Positions 3,460-24,000 of a stretch of DNA of 24,000 bases are shown here, in pieces. Location: the NCBI GenBank assembly GCA_017399555.1, contig JAFQBW010000001.1, forward strand, positions 45,960-69,959, given 5' to 3'. This stretch comes from Methanocorpusculum sp. (GTDB taxonomy: Archaea; Halobacteriota; Methanomicrobia; Methanomicrobiales; Methanocorpusculaceae). Both the position numbers and the translations under genes were made by a program. Positions within the stretch are counted from its first letter, which is position 1; the number at the start of each line of letters is the position of its first letter. The notes beneath the pieces were generated by a model. The model saw nothing but the letters and a program-made list of their open reading frames with translations. It did not search any database and was not told where the DNA came from.

Positions 3460-3693
3460 AAGCAACGCGATAGCGTTGCGGAACAGCGGAGGAGCGATAA
3501 GCGACTAAGCGACACCGCCTCACCAAACGTATATTTAATATTCGCGTAAATTCGCGTGTCTATCCTCTATGCCTCGGTTTGAATAATCTAAACACGCGGA
3601 TTTACACGAATCAGAAGGAAACACTTGAACAAGACGTAGTCATTCCGTCGCTTATCGCTCCTCCGCTGTTCACGCAACGCTATCGCGTTGCTT
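3460..3693. repeat. MITE-like long-hairpin element, copy A (~234 bp)
   Basis: The 46-nt arm aagcaacgcgatagcgttgcggaacagcggaggagcgataagcgac (3460-3505) is nearly perfectly complementary to 3647-3693. An inner inverted pair is ttcgcgtaaattcgcgtgt (3541-3559) / acacgcggatttacacgaa (3592-3610). Each outer arm also holds its own 7-bp hairpin, gcaacgc-gata-gcgttgc. A second copy lies at 5076-5310. Confidence 0.75.
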
Positions 3694-3730: not shown

Positions 3731-4996
3731 TCAGATTTTCTTTTCCAGTGCCTGCTCAACGATTTTTATCGCACATAAGTCGCCGCACATCGAGCAGGTC
3801 TCGCATTCCCCGTCACGGTCATGGACTTCTTTTGCGTGTGCACCAAAGAGCGCTGCCGCATACTGCCGCTCCCAGTCCAGCGCATGACGTGCTTCGCCCA
3901 TCTCGGTTTCGCGGGCGAGCGCGTCCTCGCGTCTGCGGGCAAGGTCGCCGATATGTGCGGCAATCTTTGCCGTCCGCGTGCCTTCGATGATATCTGTGGT
4001 ATTCGGAAGCGCCAGATGCTCTGCGGGGGATACCATGCAGAGGAAGTCTGCGCCGGCAGAGGCCGCGGCCGCCCCGCCGATGGCGCCGGTGATATGGTCA
4101 TAGCCCGGGGCGATGTCAGTTACGAGCGGCCCTAACAGATACAGCGGGGCAAAGCCGGTAATCTCCTTAATCATTTTGACATTGTAGGAAATCTCCGCAT
4201 AGTCCATATGTCCCGGACCTTCAATCATGCGGAAAATCCCCTTTTCATGGGCACGGCGGGCAAGTTTTCCAAGGGTTATATACTCCTGCGACTTGGCAAG
4301 CTTTGCGGAATCCACATATGCGCCGGGCCGCATGCCGTCGCCTAAGGAAATCGGGATGTCGTACTCATCCAGAATTTCCAGCAGATAATCATACTCTTTG
4401 TAGAGTGGGTTCTCCTCGCCGGTTGAAAGCATCATTGCTGTGTGGAATGACCCTCCGCGGGAGACCACACCCATTGTCCGCGGGTCAAGCTTTAATGCGT
4501 CAAGCACTTCAAGATTTACTCCGCAGTGCAGGGTCATGAAGTCCACGCCTTCCTTTGCCTGGTCGCGGATGGTGTTAAAGAGCGTGTCCGCATCCAAATC
4601 CACCACGTTTCCGGCTCTGCGGACCGCCTCATAAATCGGGACGGTGCCGACCGGAATTTCCAGCTTGAGAATCTCGCGCCGCATTGCCCGCAGGTCTCCG
4701 CCGGTTGAGAGGTCCATAATCGCATCTGCACCGTTTGCGATTGCCGCCTTCGCTTTTTCAATTTCTGTCTCCGGCGAGCAGTTGATACCGGACGTTCCGA
4801 TATTTACGTTGACCTTCACCGAAGCGCCGTCGCCGATAGCACAGGGTGCGTAGGGGCGGCGGTCATTTTTCAGCACAATGCAGCGTCCGGCGCGAATATC
4901 CCGTGCAAGACGTTCTACGGCGATATTTTCCTTCTTTGCGACATCAGCAATCGAGGAGAGGTCACCTGCCGTAAGCGATTTGAGTATGTCGTGCAT
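3731..4996 (-). CDS. thiC: Phosphomethylpyrimidine synthase (radical-SAM HMP-P synthase)
   Basis: 421-aa ORF with ThiC-typical sequence throughout (NIGTS..., DLSTGG, TLHCGV, VSRGG, GPGH) and the C-terminal CX2CX4C cluster motif CSMCGDLCAIK. Confidence 0.95.
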   Translation of the reverse strand: MHDILKSLTAGDLSSIADVAKKENIAVERLARDIRAGRCIVLKNDRRPYAPCAIGDGASVKVNVNIGTSGINCSPETEIEKAKAAIANGADAIMDLSTGGDLRAMRREILKLEIPVGTVPIYEAVRRAGNVVDLDADTLFNTIRDQAKEGVDFMTLHCGVNLEVLDALKLDPRTMGVVSRGGSFHTAMMLSTGEENPLYKEYDYLLEILDEYDIPISLGDGMRPGAYVDSAKLAKSQEYITLGKLARRAHEKGIFRMIEGPGHMDYAEISYNVKMIKEITGFAPLYLLGPLVTDIAPGYDHITGAIGGAAAASAGADFLCMVSPAEHLALPNTTDIIEGTRTAKIAAHIGDLARRREDALARETEMGEARHALDWERQYAAALFGAHAKEVHDRDGECETCSMCGDLCAIKIVEQALEKKI

Positions 4997-5075: not shown

Positions 5076-5310
5076 AGCAATACGATAGTGTTGCGTTACA
5101 GAAAGCGAACGATAAGTGAAGCTTTCGTCCTCCCCACAATCAAATCCAGCGTATAAATTCGCGTAGATTCTCGTGTTCTTTCCCTCTATCCGCGGTTAGA
5201 ATATTGATAAACACGCGAATTTACACGAATCAAAAGAATACGCTTGAACTAAACGGAGTCGCTTCGTCGCTTATCGCGACTCCGCTGTTTCGCAACACTA
5301 TCGTGTTGCT
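5076..5310. repeat. MITE-like long-hairpin element, copy B (~235 bp)
   Basis: Same architecture and same orientation as copy A. Left arm is aagcaatacgatagtgttgcgttacagaaagcgaacgataagtgaagc. The inner pair is ataaattcgcgtagattctcgtgt / acacgcgaatttacacgaa. Right arm is gtcgcttatcgcgactccgctgtttcgcaacactatcgtgttgct. The arms are more diverged than in copy A. Confidence 0.75.
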
Positions 5311-8505: not shown

Positions 8506-9627
8506 ATGGAACTGCACGAAATTACTGAAGGAAGTACGACTTTTTATGCTCCGGTTCAGGACGAGAACGCGGAGTTCCCGCCAGGCTCTGCTCCGGTGTT
8601 TTACAATACCAGAATGGAGTTCAACCGTGATATGACAATTCTTTTGATGAGCGTCATCAAGCCGGAAGAGTATCTGGATTCCATGGCCGCGACCGGTATC
8701 CGCGGGCTTCGCGTGGCAAACGAGACTCATGTGCCGGTGGTAATCAATGATTTCAATCCGACTGCGGTAAAAATCATTGAAGAGAATGCGAAACGCTTTG
8801 CAGAAGACATCAAGGTAACCTGCGACGATGCAAACCGTCTGATGTGTTCGGGACGCTTTGATGCGGTTGACCTCGACCCGTTTGGAACGCCGATGCCGTT
8901 TTTAGATGCGGCTTCCCGTGCCTCAAAGCGCTATCTGTTCGTTACCGCAACAGATACCGCCCCGCTTTGCGGTGCACATCTGAAAGCAGGTCTTCGCCGG
9001 TACTTCTCCACGCCGATTAATACCGAGTATCATTCGGAAGTCGGTCTGCGCATGATGATGGGTGCTATGGCACGCGAGCTGGTGAAGTATGACCGCGGCA
9101 TGGAGCCGATTCTCTCCTTTGCGAAGAACCACTACTACCGCTCGCATGTGAAGATTATTGCGAAAGTCCCGGCTGCGGATGCGACGATGGGGGAGATTGG
9201 ATTCATCCACGAATGCCCGAACTGTCTCTACCGCTCCGAGGAGAAAGGAGCGCTTCTTCCAACTGAAGAAGTCTGCCCGCACTGCGGAGCAAGAACGCTT
9301 CCAATCGGTCCTCTGTGGATGGGAAAACTCCAGGGCGAGGGAATCATTGATGCGATGCTCGAAAACCTGCCGGCAATGGAGTTTGGAACCAAGAAGCAGA
9401 TGGAGAAGTTCCTGCGGATATTAAAAGACGAACCGGAATGCGGCTTCTTCTATGATTACCATGCTATCTGCCGGGATATTCGCGTATCTCCTCCGAAGAT
9501 GGAAGAGTTTGTTGCCAAACTGAACGATATGGGATATGTGACTGCCCGAACACACTTCCATCCGACAGGAATTAAGACCGCGGCATCTCTTGCAGTTCTG
9601 ACAGAAGTTCTGCAGAACTGGGAATAA
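8506..9627 (+). CDS. trm1: tRNA (guanine26-N2)-dimethyltransferase
   Basis: Trm1-family sequence (VFYNTRMEFNRD, SMAATGIRGLRVANE, DLDPFGTP) plus the archaeal Cys4 module CPNC...CPHCG. Start moved from 8491 to 8506 (MELHEITEG) because 8491-8497 is the 3' acceptor strand of the tRNA. Confidence 0.9.
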   Translation: MELHEITEGSTTFYAPVQDENAEFPPGSAPVFYNTRMEFNRDMTILLMSVIKPEEYLDSMAATGIRGLRVANETHVPVVINDFNPTAVKIIEENAKRFAEDIKVTCDDANRLMCSGRFDAVDLDPFGTPMPFLDAASRASKRYLFVTATDTAPLCGAHLKAGLRRYFSTPINTEYHSEVGLRMMMGAMARELVKYDRGMEPILSFAKNHYYRSHVKIIAKVPAADATMGEIGFIHECPNCLYRSEEKGALLPTEEVCPHCGARTLPIGPLWMGKLQGEGIIDAMLENLPAMEFGTKKQMEKFLRILKDEPECGFFYDYHAICRDIRVSPPKMEEFVAKLNDMGYVTARTHFHPTGIKTAASLAVLTEVLQNWE

Positions 9628-9704
9628 TACTTTTTTGTCTCACTGAACTGTGGGGTTAAGGCTCGCAGAGCCGCATACCCCTGAGGCGTCGCGGGGATAT
9701 GGGC

Positions 9705-9844
9705 GATGGAGGATTTCGTTGCCAAACTGAACGATATGGGATATGTGACTGCCCGAACACATTTCCATCCGACAGGAATTAAGACCGCGGCTTCCCTTGC
9801 GGTTCTGACAGAAGTTCTGCAGAACTGGGAATAATACTTTTTTT
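9705..9844 (+). repeat. Direct duplication of the trm1 3' end plus its oligo-T tract (copy 2; copy 1 = 9498-9636)
   Basis: ~140 nt align with 7 substitutions and no indels apart from one extra T in the T-run. Copy 2 retains an ATG (9706) and an intact 42-codon frame ending at 9834, equivalent to the last 42 residues of Trm1. Confidence 0.9.
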
Positions 9845-18204: not shown

Positions 18205-18525
18205 ATGGCTCTCCGACTTTCGTTCACCCTGGACTCTGTTCTTTCCGAGCGGATTGACCAGTTTGCAAAGAAGCAGGAACTTGACAGAAACGAGGCCGTT
18301 CTTCTTCTTCTGGAACACGGACTCGACCGTGCGGCTGGCGAAGGAGTTATTGAACCAATTCGCGACCGTGATTTCAAGCGGGAAGCACGGATGCAGAAGA
18401 ATATTGATTCTATTACCGGCGGGCTTGATGATTTACGCAAAGAGATTCGCTCTCTCCATCACCTGGTAAATCTGAGCATGAAGGATTCTGAGAAAAAGAA
18501 CAGCAGACGCGGTCTGTTTAAATAA
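18205..18525 (+). CDS. Ribbon-helix-helix (CopG/Arc/MetJ-like) DNA-binding protein with C-terminal coiled-coil tail
   Basis: N-terminus LRLSFTLDSVLSERIDQFAKKQELDRNEAVLLLLEHGL fits the beta-strand/helix/helix RHH pattern. The remainder is charged and helical. Confidence 0.65.
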   Translation: MALRLSFTLDSVLSERIDQFAKKQELDRNEAVLLLLEHGLDRAAGEGVIEPIRDRDFKREARMQKNIDSITGGLDDLRKEIRSLHHLVNLSMKDSEKKNSRRGLFK

Positions 18526-20154: not shown

Positions 20155-20161
20155 TTTTTTT
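20155..20161 (+). terminator. Oligo-T (T7) tract immediately after the pyrophosphatase stop
   Basis: The sequence is taaC-TTTTTTT. It is contiguous with the first Y repeat unit. Confidence 0.4.
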
Positions 20162-20315
20162 GTCGTGCTTTAACTTCGCGTCTCATCGAGTCTCTCGTAC
20201 TCCGCACGCCCTTTTGTCGTGCTTTAACTTCGAGTCTCATTGAGCCTCTCGTGCTCCGCCTGCCCGCTTCTGAGTGTTGGCGGGCTATGCGGCGGGGATG
20301 GGTGCGGGTGTTGTG
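20157..20315 (+). repeat. Y repeat, locus 1: 55-bp unit in tandem (x2) plus 50-bp tail
   Basis: Unit 1 (20157-20211) is ttttgtcgtgctttaacttcgcgtctcatcgagtctctcgtactccgcacgccc. Unit 2 starts at 20212. The tail is gcttctgagtgttggcgggctatgcggcggggatgggtgcgggtgttgtg. Positions 20200-20315 recur at 21406-21521. Confidence 0.85.
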
Positions 20316-20450
20316 TGTGTTTTTTGGTGGAGTGGGGGGACACGCGGGAAGAGGGTGTTTAGATGCGAAGAGAATCTGCTGTGCAGGCAGATTTGGTTGT
20401 GGTTATTTTATTCACAGAGTCTTTTTCTCTTTCGGCGGTGAAGGTATTGT

Positions 20451-21092
20451 ATGGACTGGCATGTTTCCGAGCCGTATGAGCCGGCTGATTATGTGCGGCA
20501 GAAGGCTCCTTATCCTGCGTATGATGTGTGGGATTTGCTGAGTGATGCTGAGCGGGATGCGGTTTTGTCGTTTCAGGATTTGGGAAGTCGTCAGGATTCG
20601 TGGGATGTGTCTGCTCCTGACCCGGTACACGTAAACTGTTCTATTGTGAATTCGTATCTGCGGTTTCCTGAATTTGTTCAGGAGATGTCGTCTGATGATT
20701 TGCGGTTGTGTGAGGAGCTTATTTCACTTCTGGATTCTGCGGTTTCGAAGAGTGTTCTGCCGGAAGGATTGAATGTGATTCGCGGTCTTGCCGACCCGCA
20801 GTGGATTTCTCAGCTGTCTGAAGGAGATGTGTATCTCGAACCGGCTTATGGGAGTTATTCTCTTTCTGTTGATGCGGCTTTACGGTATGCGCGGGTGAAT
20901 GATGAGGGAAAATTGGTGTTTCTTGCCCGTATACTTGAAAAAGGAGAGAGGGCGTTGTATTTAGGATGTAAGGAGGAGGAGATGCTTGTTGAACGCGGTT
21001 GTGAATATGTGATTAATGAGATTAGTCCTGTGGAAAAGGGCGTGCTCTCGTCTGATTATGAGGCGAGTGTTTATATTCTTCGGAGGAGATAG
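20451..21092 (+). CDS. C3-exoenzyme-like ADP-ribosyltransferase (R-S-E clade), no signal peptide
   Basis: Motif order matches C3-like ARTs recalled from memory. The N-terminal helical region is SDAERDAVLSF....IVNSYLR...LCEELISLLDSAVSKSVLPEGL. The Arg motif is NVIRG. The STS-like motif is EPAYGSYSLS. The catalytic motif is KEEEMLVERGCEYVI (E-x-E, compare C3 QLEMLLPRHSTYHI). Length is 213 aa, similar to mature C3. A GGTGAAGG box lies 7 nt upstream of the ATG. Confidence 0.72.
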   Translation: MDWHVSEPYEPADYVRQKAPYPAYDVWDLLSDAERDAVLSFQDLGSRQDSWDVSAPDPVHVNCSIVNSYLRFPEFVQEMSSDDLRLCEELISLLDSAVSKSVLPEGLNVIRGLADPQWISQLSEGDVYLEPAYGSYSLSVDAALRYARVNDEGKLVFLARILEKGERALYLGCKEEEMLVERGCEYVINEISPVEKGVLSSDYEASVYILRRR

Positions 21093-21099
21093 ATAAATT

Positions 21100-21255
21100 A
21101 TGTATCCAACAACCTGTGAATATATGGTGTATGTCGGACACCAGGAATTAACGGAGGAGGACAGGCGTGATGCACGCAGGATACGTGAGGGTTTTGAGCG
21201 CTGTTTCCTTCCGCCCGGGGTGAAGCTGAAGCCGCGTTCTGAGATGAAGGATTAA
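21100..21255 (+). CDS. 51-codon ORF downstream of the ART gene (candidate immunity/antitoxin partner)
   Basis: This ORF is absent from the supplied track because it is under 60 aa. Its translation is MYPTTCEYMVYVGHQELTEEDRRDARRIREGFERCFLPPGVKLKPRSEMKD. The ATG lies 7 nt after the ART stop, with GGAGGAG 10 nt upstream. Two oligo-T tracts follow the stop directly. Coding status is unproven. Confidence 0.4.
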   Translation: MYPTTCEYMVYVGHQELTEEDRRDARRIREGFERCFLPPGVKLKPRSEMKD

Positions 21256-21261
21256 GATCTC

Positions 21262-21280
21262 TTTTTTGAATACTTTTTTT
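21262..21280 (+). terminator. Twin oligo-T tracts (T6, T7) after the ART/mini-ORF pair
   Basis: The sequence cTTTTTTgaatacTTTTTTTg begins 7 nt after the mini-ORF stop. Confidence 0.45.
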
Positions 21281-21360
21281 GTGTTGTTTCGGTATATCTG
21301 CTGGGTATTTTGGTTATTTGGCAAATGATTGCCGCCGGAAACGGGCACAGCGACAGCGTT

Positions 21361-21567
21361 GTGCCCCCGGCGGTTGTTGAATGTTTCTTTGGTCTTATTC
21401 GACTGCTCCGCACGCCCTTTTGTCGTGCTTTAACTTCGCGTCTCATCGAGCCTCTCGTACTCCGCCTGCCCGCTTCTGAGCGTTGGCGAGCTATGCGGCG
21501 GGGATGGGTGCGGGTGTTGTGCTCCCGGCGGTTGATGATTTTTTTGGCATGATTCGACTGCCCCGCC
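21361..21567 (+). repeat. X-Y-X' repeat block (Y repeat locus 2 flanked by two ~50-bp X repeats)
   Basis: X is gtgcccccggcggttgttgaatgtttctttggtcttattcgactgctccgc (21361-21411). X' is gtgctcccggcggttgatgatttttttggcatgattcgactgccccgcc (21519-21567). Y (21406-21521) matches 20200-20315 with 6 mismatches in 116 nt. Confidence 0.85.
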
Positions 21568-21691: not shown

Positions 21692-21804
21692 GTATGCCTG
21701 CTGTCGCAAGTCTCTTCGAGCCTTGCTCCCGGCTTGAGCCCCTCCGGGTCTCGCGCCTTCCGACCACTCCTCCCCTTCGGGTCGGCGTGCTCGTCTTTTT
21801 TGCT
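21692..21804 (+). repeat. Z repeat, copy 1 (GC-rich, ends in hairpin plus oligo-T)
   Basis: The core gtctcttcgagccttgctcccggcttgagcccctccgggtctcgc matches the reverse complement of 23529-23571. It ends with a ccgacc...ggtcgg hairpin and cttttttgc. Confidence 0.7.
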
Positions 21805-21983: not shown

Positions 21984-22361
21984 ATGAAAATGTTAGATGA
22001 CAACTCGGATTTACTGAAAGTACTTCGCTGTGCTTTTGAGGTTTATGCAACTTTGAAATACGGTTATCTGGAATCGGTGTATGAGGCGGCTCTCGAATAC
22101 GAACTTTTGCAGGCGGGCTTTTCGGTTTCCCGGCAGGTTCGGATTCCGGTGTTCTACAAGGGTGTGGAGCTGAAAAAGGATTTCTATGCGGATATGGTGG
22201 TGAATGACTGTATTCTTTTAGAGTTAAAGGCAGTATCTACAATCAATCAGGCTCACGAAAAACAGCTTCAAAGTTACATGAAGAGTACAGGAATCAAAGA
22301 AGGCATGCTGTTAAACTTCGGGCATGTGAGGAGCTTACAATGGAGAGTTTTCTCTCCATGA
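21984..22361 (+). CDS. GxxExxY-family protein (PD-(D/E)xK nuclease-like fold)
   Basis: Signature GYLESVYE, then the ADMVVNDCILLELKAV (D...ELK) nuclease-like motif. Start at MKMLDD is chosen by alignment with the paralog at 23620-24000. The longer ORF from 21876 runs through repeat sequence. Confidence 0.85.
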   Translation: MKMLDDNSDLLKVLRCAFEVYATLKYGYLESVYEAALEYELLQAGFSVSRQVRIPVFYKGVELKKDFYADMVVNDCILLELKAVSTINQAHEKQLQSYMKSTGIKEGMLLNFGHVRSLQWRVFSP

Positions 22362-22493
22362 TTTCATTTCATCTTTGATGTGGGTATTTGCCCATGTTAT
22401 TTGCGTATTTTTCAAATTATTGCACAAATTAATGGGGATTCTATTAAGAATAAACCGAAATGTTTTTTTTTTCCCTACATCACATATATCCAC

Positions 22494-23471
22494 ATGAAGA
22501 AATTCATTATGGCTGTAGGGCTTCTTCTCGTCGCAGCAGTTTTTATGAGCGGCTGTGTAACAGAGACGGAAGACCCGATTGTTGGAATCTGGCATAACGA
22601 TAAAGAAGCAAGTTTGCCGAATGGTGATTTTGATTCCAGAATCTTTGTATTCAATGCTGATGGTACTGGAATTTCCCAGTTCCGGTTTGATGGAGAACCA
22701 GTCTCCGATAATCGTGATTTTACCTGGAAAAATGAAGGTGACGGAAAGTACATCGTCAACTATGCGAATACCTACGGTACTAACATCTCGACAACGAATG
22801 AGCTTGTATTAGCTGAAGATGTCTTATCAACAACTGTTGAACCATACAAGTTCGAGCTCCACAGAGAATCCGCAGCAGAGTATCTTGTTGGTCTCTGGGC
22901 AACTGATGTATCAGACTATGAAGAGTTAGAAGACATTGTCTGTCTGATGTACGTTGCCGAAGACGGCACAGGAGATATCATTTACTACGGCTCGGAAGTC
23001 ATGGGATTCGATGATGTCTACACGTATGCATTCACCTGGGAAGAGAAGGATGGTGTAATGTATGGTGTTTATGAAGGCGGCTATAAGTTCGACCTCACCC
23101 TGAAAGAAGGAGTGCTCTACGAAGGTAAAGAAGAGGTATTCCACAAGTATGCAGTCGAAGACCGCTTACTCGGCATCTGGATGTCTGACGAACCAAGCAA
23201 AGAAGCAGAAGGCACTTTTGACATTGTAATTCTCATCAGACCAGACGGCACTGGTGTTGAAATCTGGACTGTTCCAGGTTCTCATGTCGCATCTGCAAAG
23301 TACTACTTCGACTGGGAAATGACCGATTCATACACCTATCAGGCAGTATATGATGACGGAGAAGTCTGGGACTTTAAAACATTCAACCTTGGTCTCACTG
23401 ACGGTGGAGTAACCTACAGCAAAGTAGGATACGACGTCTTAGCTGAGTATGCAAAGAAGGTTACTGCATAA
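22494..23471 (+). CDS. Lipoprotein with three tandem lipocalin-like repeats
   Basis: Signal plus lipobox MKKFIMAVGLLLVAAVFMSGC. There are three ~95-aa repeats, each starting G(I/L)W..D and containing DGTG and (F/Y)(T/D)W motifs (aa ~29-125, 130-222, 224-315). Start set at 22494, not 22380. Confidence 0.8.
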   Translation: MKKFIMAVGLLLVAAVFMSGCVTETEDPIVGIWHNDKEASLPNGDFDSRIFVFNADGTGISQFRFDGEPVSDNRDFTWKNEGDGKYIVNYANTYGTNISTTNELVLAEDVLSTTVEPYKFELHRESAAEYLVGLWATDVSDYEELEDIVCLMYVAEDGTGDIIYYGSEVMGFDDVYTYAFTWEEKDGVMYGVYEGGYKFDLTLKEGVLYEGKEEVFHKYAVEDRLLGIWMSDEPSKEAEGTFDIVILIRPDGTGVEIWTVPGSHVASAKYYFDWEMTDSYTYQAVYDDGEVWDFKTFNLGLTDGGVTYSKVGYDVLAEYAKKVTA

Positions 23472-23505: not shown

Positions 23506-23600
23506 AGCAAAAAAGCCCGCCGCGATTGGCGAGAGCCGGAGGCTCAAGCCGTGAGCATGGCTCGAAGAGACATGTGATTAGCGAGCGGCGCGGCAGGCAC
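23506..23600 (-). repeat. Z repeat, copy 2 (inverted relative to copy 1)
   Basis: gcgagagccggaggctcaagccgtgagcatggctcgaagagac is the reverse-complement homolog of the 21709-21754 core. It ends (minus strand) in gggcttttttgct, like copy 1. It lies immediately 3' of the minus-strand GxxExxY gene. Confidence 0.7.
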
Positions 23601-23619: not shown

Positions 23620-24000
23620 TCATGGAGAGTTAATCACTCTCCATTCAAGCCTTCTAAGGTTTCCAAAGTTCACTAAAAGCCCATCAGACATCCCTGTCGA
23701 TTTCAGATAACTCTCAACCTGCCTCTCGTGAATCTTCGCGAGGTTCGACACTGCCTTCAACTCCACCAGAACCGCATCATTCACAATCATATCCGCGACA
23801 AACGGCGCATCCAGAAGCTCCCCCTTGTAATACACCGGAAGCTTCACCTGACGCCGAACCGCAAAGCCTTCTGCCGTCAGTTCCTTTTCCAACGCCTTCT
23901 CGTACACTGATTCCAGATAACCGGGCTTCAAGTGATTGTACACCGCAAGGGCGCATCCAACAATTCTGTACATATCCGAGTTAACATCTAACTTATTCAT
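23620..24000 (-). CDS. GxxExxY-family protein (PD-(D/E)xK nuclease-like fold), paralog 2
   Basis: GYLESVYE signature and ADMIVNDAVLVELKAV motif. It is collinear with the 21984-22361 product over its full length (MNKLDVNSD... / ...WRVINSP). The start codon sits on the last three bases of the window, so an upstream extension cannot be excluded. Confidence 0.85.
   Translation of the reverse strand: MNKLDVNSDMYRIVGCALAVYNHLKPGYLESVYEKALEKELTAEGFAVRRQVKLPVYYKGELLDAPFVADMIVNDAVLVELKAVSNLAKIHERQVESYLKSTGMSDGLLVNFGNLRRLEWRVINSP

Follow-up and report, generated by a model that had tools for sequence, protein, structure and literature searches.

A predicted ADP-ribosyltransferase and its 51-residue partner form a strain-variable, putative toxin/inhibitor cassette in Methanocorpusculum related to MuF-linked gene pairs of tailed proviruses

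The closest described systems to the locus reported here are the MuF polymorphic toxins of bacterial temperate phages, in which MuF is joined to a C-terminal toxin domain (an ADP-ribosyltransferase, ART, in 14% of them) and a small downstream open reading frame (ORF), present in 89%, is regarded as the immunity gene (PMC5576092, Jamet et al. 2017). That 2017 survey dealt with bacteria only, the word 'archaea' not occurring in it once, and proposed that MuF-ARTs have 'low toxicity' (PMC5576092). ARTs of the Alt/VIP2 kind are commonly fused to MuF and are thought to be packaged in the phage head and injected (PMC9503650). One MuF-ART, Bxa of Bacteroides stercoris, ADP-ribosylates arginines and is bactericidal; it is neutralised by Bsi, a small protein that binds it and occupies its active site in an AlphaFold 3 model, and by the hydrolase BAH (PMC11699363). 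Bxa is released and provides a precedent for the action of a MuF-ART on epithelial cells, and polyimmunity loci have been discussed for MuF systems (PMC11699363). Here we describe a two-gene unit encoding a predicted ART of 213 aa and a 51-aa partner, henceforth called mini, in a 24,000-nt stretch of Methanocorpusculum sp. (GenBank assembly GCA_017399555.1, contig JAFQBW010000001.1, positions 45,960 to 69,959 of the forward strand). We refer to this whole stretch as the window, and coordinates given without a locus name are positions in it.

The larger gene (20451–21092, plus strand, ATG start) had been read, from the sequence alone, as an ADPrib_exo_Tox ART. The profile comparisons agree with this: Pfam PF03496 (ADPrib_exo_Tox) matches residues 63–195 with 30.5 bits against a gathering threshold of 23.4 (E 2.9e-7) and is the only Pfam family over threshold, and a profile made from 24 homologues finds C3stau2 (6.5e-5), Certhrax, Vip2, Plx2A and C3larvin in the PDB. 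In the profile alignment with C3stau2, VIR111G falls on the catalytic Arg, GS135YS137 on the STQ motif and E175-E-E177 on Q-x-E. The same reading had expected a fold of the C3/Vip2/iota type, and a Foldseek search with an AlphaFold2 (AF2) model (predicted local distance difference test, pLDDT, 81.8; predicted template modelling score 0.80) returned Certhrax (2e-10), Plx2A, CDTa, C3bot1, iota Ia and Vis, with probability 1.00 and template modelling scores of 0.55–0.66. Phage proteins annotated as 'ADP ribosyltransferase', 'minor capsid protein' or 'head morphogenesis protein' match the model equally well. The motifs VIRG, GSYSLS and KEEEM, picked out in that reading, are all present and kept in homologues: R111, E175 and E177 are invariant, and S135/S137 near-invariant, among the 24 homologues (52–98% identity), and pairwise dN/dS values of the gene lie between 0.13 and 0.32. 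No family match was found for the ART in PHROGs, PADLOC-DB v2 or NCBIfam. By profile and model, then, the 213-aa protein is an ART of the R-S-E class and of the Alt/VIP2/C3 kind; it would be an NAD+-dependent mono-ADP-ribosyltransferase, and the E-x-E motif suggests arginine as its acceptor.

The narrower label 'C3-like' stands only in part. Like the C3 exoenzymes (C3bot, C3stau2, C3larvin, Plx2A), the window ART is a single-domain protein of ~24 kDa with the same fold, a helical N-terminal region, and the set of Arg, S-x-S and ARTT-loop Glu; as a class name, C3 is too narrow, given that C3, Certhrax, CDTa/iota, Vip2 and the phage head-protein ARTs are all similarly distant from it. C3 exoenzymes are basic proteins, whereas this ART is acidic (pI 4.4) and 15–20% identical to them. 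Its ARTT loop reads K-E175-E-E177 rather than the C3-type Q-x-E of asparagine specificity, its hydrophilic N-terminus (MDWHVSEPYEPADY...) is unlike the signal peptide of C3 toxins, and it comes with an immunity-type partner that the secreted C3 toxins lack. The highest 19-residue Kyte-Doolittle mean is 0.89, in keeping with the earlier statement that there is neither a signal peptide nor a transmembrane segment. Since the protein has no export signal, it would act in the cytoplasm. One could still imagine an effector released by lysis or in vesicles, as Bacteroides Bxa is, and aimed at the animal host or at competitors; the gut habitat and the precedent of Bxa on epithelial cells (PMC11699363) would suit such a role. 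We consider it very improbable, because the protein has no signal peptide, transmembrane segment or delivery domain, nor a MuF for virion loading, and because its tightly coupled partner points to a hazard inside the cell.

That partner is encoded by a 51-codon ORF (21100–21255, plus strand, ATG start) that begins 7 nt after the ART ORF. The sequence-only reading had taken the two to be coupled and had asked whether homologues of the ART always carry such an ORF. They do in 10 of the 10 distinct pair variants, where mini lies 3' of the ART, in frame and 2–8 nt past its stop. Its indels are also in frame, giving proteins of 51, 52 or 53 aa in which the core REGFERCFLPPGVKL is invariant, and pairwise dN/dS is 0.09–0.6. 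ART and mini diverge together (r = 0.81), and a profile search with mini returned 57 clusters, the named ones from Methanocorpusculum, which mirror the 56 clusters of the ART profile search. The features of the protein are an N-terminal Y-x-G-[HR]-x-E-x-T-E-E motif, a predicted helix at residues 19–36, the single helix of an AF2 model of mini alone (pLDDT 83), and the conserved REGFERCFLPPGVKL stretch. No Pfam domain was found in any mini cluster, and there was no match for mini in PHROGs, PADLOC or NCBIfam. The alignments thus identify the ORF as a real, conserved coding partner, with both genes under purifying selection, and its family, of ~50 aa and newly defined here, appears distinct from any described immunity protein as far as Pfam, PHROGs, PADLOC and NCBIfam go.

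The two genes lie in a conserved DNA unit on the plus strand that runs from promoter to terminator (20397–21288), as bounded by blastn and by alignments across all contexts of the pair. Its left end holds a promoter-like A/T box, TTATTTTATTCACAG (20403–20417), ~34–48 nt 5' of the ATG, in which TTCACA is invariant in 10/10 contexts (alignment columns T159–A167) and which may serve as an archaeal TATA/BRE element. A GGAGGAG Shine-Dalgarno-like box (21082–21088) sits within the last ART codons, 11 nt 5' of the mini ATG, and most contexts have a GGAGG-like box (GAGG core) at the same position. Past the mini stop, two oligo-T runs, T6 (21262–21267) and T7 (21274–21280), make up a candidate archaeal terminator (21262–21280), the T-rich stretch being likewise kept in most contexts. 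The ORF pair, its 7-nt gap, the GGAGGAG box and the twin runs had all been described beforehand and lie where they had been placed. We read the arrangement as a two-gene operon with one promoter-like box and one candidate terminator, whose members are co-inherited and probably translationally coupled. Phage morons are autonomous promoter-gene-terminator insertions, and this discrete unit of ~890 bp, going from a promoter-like box to a T-rich terminator between unrelated genes, resembles them; unlike morons, it is found mostly in chromosomal hotspots and not between prophage genes. It is hardly credible that the pair has no function and is only what remains of a decayed provirus or island: several contexts do place it at the end of a small-ORF island with an HNH endonuclease, but purifying selection acts on ART and mini alike, the promoter box and the terminator have been kept, and the catalytic residues do not vary.

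An exhaustive search for more distant relatives of the ART found several that are proviral, at 36–39% identity. A 193-aa paralogue (39% identical, E 4.5e-30) is carried by tailed Methanocorpusculum proviruses with the gene order N6/N4 methylase, TerL, portal, a 113-aa protein, MuF (149 aa), ART (193 aa), an 82-aa ORF, presumed capsid genes, HK97 gp10-like, tail completion and Big_2. In related proviruses MuF and ART are fused in a 354-aa protein annotated as 'minor capsid protein', with both PF04233 and PF03496, followed by a 52-aa ORF. PF04233 is carried by paralogues P0061 and P0067, and the paralogues of loci L032–L037 sit in the packaging/head module. The 82-aa and 52-aa proviral ORFs carry the N-terminal motif of mini (MEHVTEDIFEWTGRRELTEADQRYAKKM vs MIPLDEHSFEYLGRRELTEADRLEARKM), and hhalign places the mini profile on them N-terminus on N-terminus with 92.8% (E 4e-7) and 88% (E 2.9e-6), the N-terminal ~30 residues alone being common to chromosomal and viral partners. 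A standalone 207-aa paralogue likewise has a 44-aa ORF 2 nt downstream. Across the wider family alignment E175, E177, G134 and S135 are invariant. Both genes of the window are homologous to those of a proviral pair, an ART fused to or beside a MuF minor head protein and a small ORF. Outside the clade, the nearest relatives are the ARTs linked to MuF in tailed proviruses, where a homologous small ORF follows in each case. Pattern scans of IMG/VR returned neither the 213-aa clade nor the MuF::ART fusion, and tblastn against 50,697 phage records gave no match, so that the viral link rests on provirus regions in metagenome and metagenome-assembled genome (MAG) contigs.

Farther away, an ART of Methanimicrococcus hongohii is followed by a 39-aa ORF (L041:4697–4816, not called as a gene) and one of a Methanosarcinales MAG by an overlapping 88-aa ORF (L042:4728–4994, called as a gene). 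Both small ORFs have an N-terminal F-x-Y-V-G...T-P-E-E motif similar to that of mini. As a separate observation, members of the standalone 213-aa clade are extended at the N-terminus by 20 residues (20451–20510, ART residues 1–20) with an invariant E-P-Y-x-P-x-D-Y-x-x-Q, to which nothing corresponds in the 193-aa proviral ART.

Set beside the MuF toxins (e.g. Bxa/Bsi/BAH, or EFV of E. faecalis), the window pair shares the order of a PF03496/Alt-VIP2 ART followed by a small ORF with no known domain (51 aa, within the <150 aa used for such ORFs), its E-x-E motif fits the arginine specificity of Bxa, and paralogues from the same genus show the exact MuF-ART-small-ORF layout in a TerL-portal-head module. 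It differs in its archaeal host, in having its own promoter-like box and terminator, in its dispersal over chromosomal hotspots and, unlike the Bxa system, in the lack of an ADP-ribosylhydrolase immunity gene such as BAH in the window. We do not file the window ART as a MuF toxin because it has no MuF domain and does not lie in a provirus. With Tre1-Tri1, DarT-DarG and ParT-ParS it has in common that a toxin, here a putative one, precedes its cognate neutraliser in one operon, and that such systems move about, often exist in several copies and are linked to defence islands. Their antitoxins are larger, and two of them, DarG and Tri1, include hydrolase domains; DarT and ParT come from other clades of ARTs, and none of these systems is known from archaea with a 51-aa partner. 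The sequence-only reading had known of no characterised archaeal C3-type ART module; our literature search, too, found no paper that joins Methanocorpusculum with an ADP-ribosyltransferase.

To see where else the pair occurs we relied mainly on exact-protein look-ups, the metagenome scan having given 2 loci only. There are ~9 distinct contexts in all, including the site of the window. The pair lies between a sodium-solute symporter and an A-type ATPase operon (L005–8, L010), between moaE-moaC-trmO and modABC (L022), and at the end of islands of small ORFs that carry an HNH endonuclease (L001–4, L009, L013, L018–21, probably L011), while at L015–17 it adjoins an inverted copy of such an island. 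Restriction-modification (RM) genes recur around it: it is close to a PDDEXK_3 gene and an MmeI-type enzyme at L009 and near type I HsdM/HsdS at L011, and at L012 (4625–12133) the pair and a 108-aa ORF stand inside a type I RM operon in the order HsdM-HsdS-108aa-ART-mini-HsdR. Loci L011 and L012 are two copies in one MAG. PrrC-type abortive-infection genes are embedded in type I RM operons (hsdM-hsdS-prrC-hsdR, as in the E. coli prr locus), and at L012 the pair has the same position between hsdS and hsdR. The likeness goes no further than that one locus: the effector is an ART and not an anticodon nuclease, and the window copy is outside any RM operon. At L023 (4495–6809) two divergent pairs stand head to head: the minus strand encodes a 197-aa ART (47% identical) and its 78-aa partner, the plus strand a 215-aa ART and its 52-aa partner. 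A fragment of 35–40 aa resembling the ART C-terminus ('LYLGKKEE') lies between them. What looked like a truncated, partnerless ART (residues 1–140) at L014 (3142–3609) was discarded, since it joins abruptly to bacterial MutS-like sequence at 2.6x coverage and is probably a chimeric assembly. The HNH island was considered as part of a provirus and rejected, as tblastx finds only the ART and the start of mini in common with the provirus head region and the island proteins have no viral hallmark matches. A ribbon-helix-helix protein of the window (18205–18525) was likewise rejected as an island remnant, having no similarity to the NikA-like protein of the HNH island.

The decisive comparison for the window's own site used contigs encoding a pyrophosphatase with a protein sequence identical to that of the window. 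The 5' neighbour of the unit is this gene, a Mn-dependent inorganic diphosphatase with DHH-CBS-DRTGG-DHHA2 domains (NF011442, 773 bits), and its 3' neighbours are two GxxExxY/PDDEXK_3 genes; both flanks had been named correctly from the sequence. It had been suggested that comparing this interval in relatives would reveal whether a cassette is present or absent, and the interval is indeed not identical everywhere. Among the loci shown, ART-mini directly follows the identical pyrophosphatase in five (L025, L028, L029, L030, L031) and is absent in three (L024, L026, L027). The cargo at this hotspot (L024–L031) comprises, besides ART-mini, varied PDDEXK_3 alleles or a fragment, a type I HsdR (L026) and genes for helix-turn-helix proteins (L024). 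Mapping of the segments at filled and empty sites shows that the indel is a block of ~1016 bp (20316–21331), in which the ART-mini unit lies between spacers of 81 nt on the left and 43 nt on the right. The pair is therefore an exchangeable, strain-variable cassette of chromosomal hotspots, sometimes in RM neighbourhoods.

In the earlier reading this cassette was boxed in by two 116-nt direct repeats, which would then be att-like ends or a target duplication. The repeats exist (20200–20315 and 21406–21521), flank the unit at 96% mutual identity, and recombination between them would excise it. They are built from a 54-nt unit and a 50-nt tail. Directly past the pyrophosphatase stop there are two tandem copies of the unit (20158–20265; copy A 20158–20211, copy B 20212–20265), a local intergenic repeat outside the cassette, and the upstream 116-nt repeat consists of the end of copy A, copy B and the tail; the downstream one contains a third copy (C, 21418–21471) and the tail. 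A 21-mer of the unit occurs 3 times against 0.00 expected from shuffles. Another intergenic repeat, which we call seg (21332–21405), has a diverged second copy, seg' (21526–21566), all of these being on the plus strand. After the pyrophosphatase, the window thus reads unit, unit, tail, [81 nt, ART unit, 43 nt], seg, unit, tail, seg', and the empty site L024 reads unit, tail, ~58 nt (46 nt by a tighter reading of the junction), seg. One unit and tail are therefore present in the ART-less L024, and also in L026 and L027. The ART-bearing L028 has a single unit and tail upstream and lacks the downstream copy, and in L030 and L031 these pieces are permuted in other ways. Elsewhere the conserved DNA stops at 20397 and 21288, no flanking repeats were found in five other contexts of the pair, and an exact 17-mer of the 54-nt unit was found in 0 of the 23 loci searched. 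The idea of a repeat-bounded mobile element is thus largely refuted, and we give it very little credence: the cassette stands, the repeats as its ends do not. The unit, tail and seg repeats form a mosaic that is local to this intergenic region, prone to recombination and there whether or not the ART is. Folding z-scores for the 116-nt repeats were inconsistent (-0.3 to -2.8), so that a structured RNA is unsupported there.

Taken together, we favour, with fair though far from full confidence, the view that the ART is an intracellular, probably arginine-directed toxin, that the 51-aa protein is its cognate binding inhibitor, and that the two are maintained and spread together as a module of the addiction or defence type. 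This view is based on the strict linkage and co-divergence of the two genes; on intact catalytic residues under purifying selection; on strain-variable presence and multi-copy dispersal; on the repeated proximity to RM genes, including the PrrC-like position in a type I operon; and on the proviral homologues of both genes, which form a pair analogous to demonstrated toxin/immunity pairs of bacteria. The proviral pair would be the archaeal counterpart of the bacterial MuF polymorphic toxin/immunity modules. By analogy with MuF immunity, mini would be a cognate, non-enzymatic inhibitor that keeps the ART inactive by binding it, with the conserved N-terminal motif and the helix of mini as the probable contacts. 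Detached from MuF and provided with its own promoter, the pair may act as a toxin-antitoxin/addiction or abortive-infection-type module, a self-contained operon that in gut Methanocorpusculum occupies, as a ~1-kb strain-variable insertion, the recombination-prone hotspot 3' of the pyrophosphatase gene and that would move among variable regions and defence islands.

Several observations pull the other way. The window ART has no MuF domain (PF04233) and lies outside any provirus. The MuF-linked proviral ARTs and several other paralogues have Lys in place of R111 (LVKG, LFKG; alignment including P0061, P0063, P0065, P0067, P0062, P0066 and P0069), which makes biochemical equivalence across the family uncertain. 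Mini has no known domain and is mostly one helix, with no DNA-binding domain, unlike classical type II antitoxins, and the window copy has Q where ~90% of homologues have R15. The homology of the small ORFs in other genera is weak (hhalign E 1e-3 and 0.011). PADLOC-DB v2, which collects known and candidate defence proteins, has no match for the ART, mini or the paralogues. Finally, the cassette carries no recombinase.

Two other functions must be weighed against a toxin and its inhibitor. In the first, the pair serves in superinfection immunity or against viruses: mini would neutralise ART from incoming MuF-ART virions, or the ART would modify viral components, its copy being kept as the addictive half. 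This would suit the fact that both genes have homologues in the proviral pair, the RM and defence neighbourhoods and the polyimmunity loci discussed for MuF systems (PMC11699363). Cross-neutralisation is doubtful, however, as the partners share only their N-terminal ~30 residues and the ARTs are 36–39% identical, and pure immunity has no need of an intact ART under purifying selection; we regard this explanation as unlikely. In the second, the ART is a non-toxic regulatory enzyme, like DraT or T4 ModA/B, with mini as a specificity or activating subunit or as its substrate. Its viral relatives are probably host-modulating enzymes, the 'low toxicity' proposed for MuF-ARTs (PMC5576092) is compatible with such a role, and the near-invariant Arg in the conserved motif of mini is a possible acceptor. 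Against it, strain-variable presence, multi-copy dispersal and defence-island contexts are atypical of housekeeping regulation. Moreover, there is no reversing hydrolase nearby: as noted from the sequence before, neither macro or DraG hydrolases nor secretion genes were found among the annotated ORFs of the window. We judge a regulatory role to be quite unlikely.

A bolder version of the toxin/inhibitor reading, which we put forward tentatively, is that a virus-derived ART toxin and a new ~50-aa inhibitor family escaped their MuF context and became an autonomous cassette spreading in chromosomal hotspots and RM islands of host-associated methanogens. The direction of transfer, from virus to chromosome, would be part of this proposal. 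The cassette would then be an ADP-ribosylation toxin-antitoxin or abortive-infection system in Archaea, of which none is described in the literature searched, and the partner motif (F/Y-x-Y/W-x-G...T-E-E) might be a general ART-blocking peptide of viruses and hosts, possibly reaching the Methanosarcinales.

The other genes of the window are those of an ordinary Methanocorpusculum chromosome (ThiC, Trm1, an ADP-forming acetyl-CoA synthetase-like protein, prephenate dehydratase, CitG, a PAN-like AAA ATPase and others), and a tRNA-Arg is the sole Rfam match over the window. Further repeats were seen among them. In thiC (3731–4996, minus strand) we have another gene of the same genome boxed by intergenic direct repeats, here of 82 nt (3589–3670 and 5208–5289, 84% identity); no Rfam match to a thiamine pyrophosphate riboswitch was found. 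A 139-nt direct repeat with 95% identity (9498–9636 and 9705–9843), the first copy of which overlaps the 3' end of the gene for Trm1 (tRNA m2,2G methyltransferase), suggests a duplicated gene end. The two GxxExxY/PDDEXK_3 genes are mutually inverted, with a conserved 37-nt box before each (repeat pairs 21704–21740 / 23541–23577 and 22053–22162 / 23822–23931), and bracket an ORF (22380–23471) that has no family match but does have a lipoprotein-like signal (MKKFIMAVGLLLVAAVFMSGC) and repeated DGTG motifs. The variable hotspots of related strains (L009, L012, L024–L027) again contain PDDEXK_3 genes together with their leader repeats.

Phage-head-linked ADP-ribosylating toxin/immunity pairs have been characterised recently and in bacteria only, with no archaeal counterpart in the literature searched. 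The present comparisons suggest that the tailed viruses that infect gut methanogens are armed in the same way as bacterial MuF-ART phages, and that a detached copy circulates in Methanocorpusculum chromosomes as a strain-variable cassette, sometimes within RM operons and always with a previously undescribed 51-aa protein. We consider the locus of moderate to high interest because it would extend MuF-type ART toxin/immunity biology to archaea and adds a new partner family of ~50 aa. As a very small candidate ART inhibitor mini may be useful to biochemistry, and the locus as a whole offers a testable entry into virus-host conflict and strain competition among the gut methanogens of livestock and wildlife.

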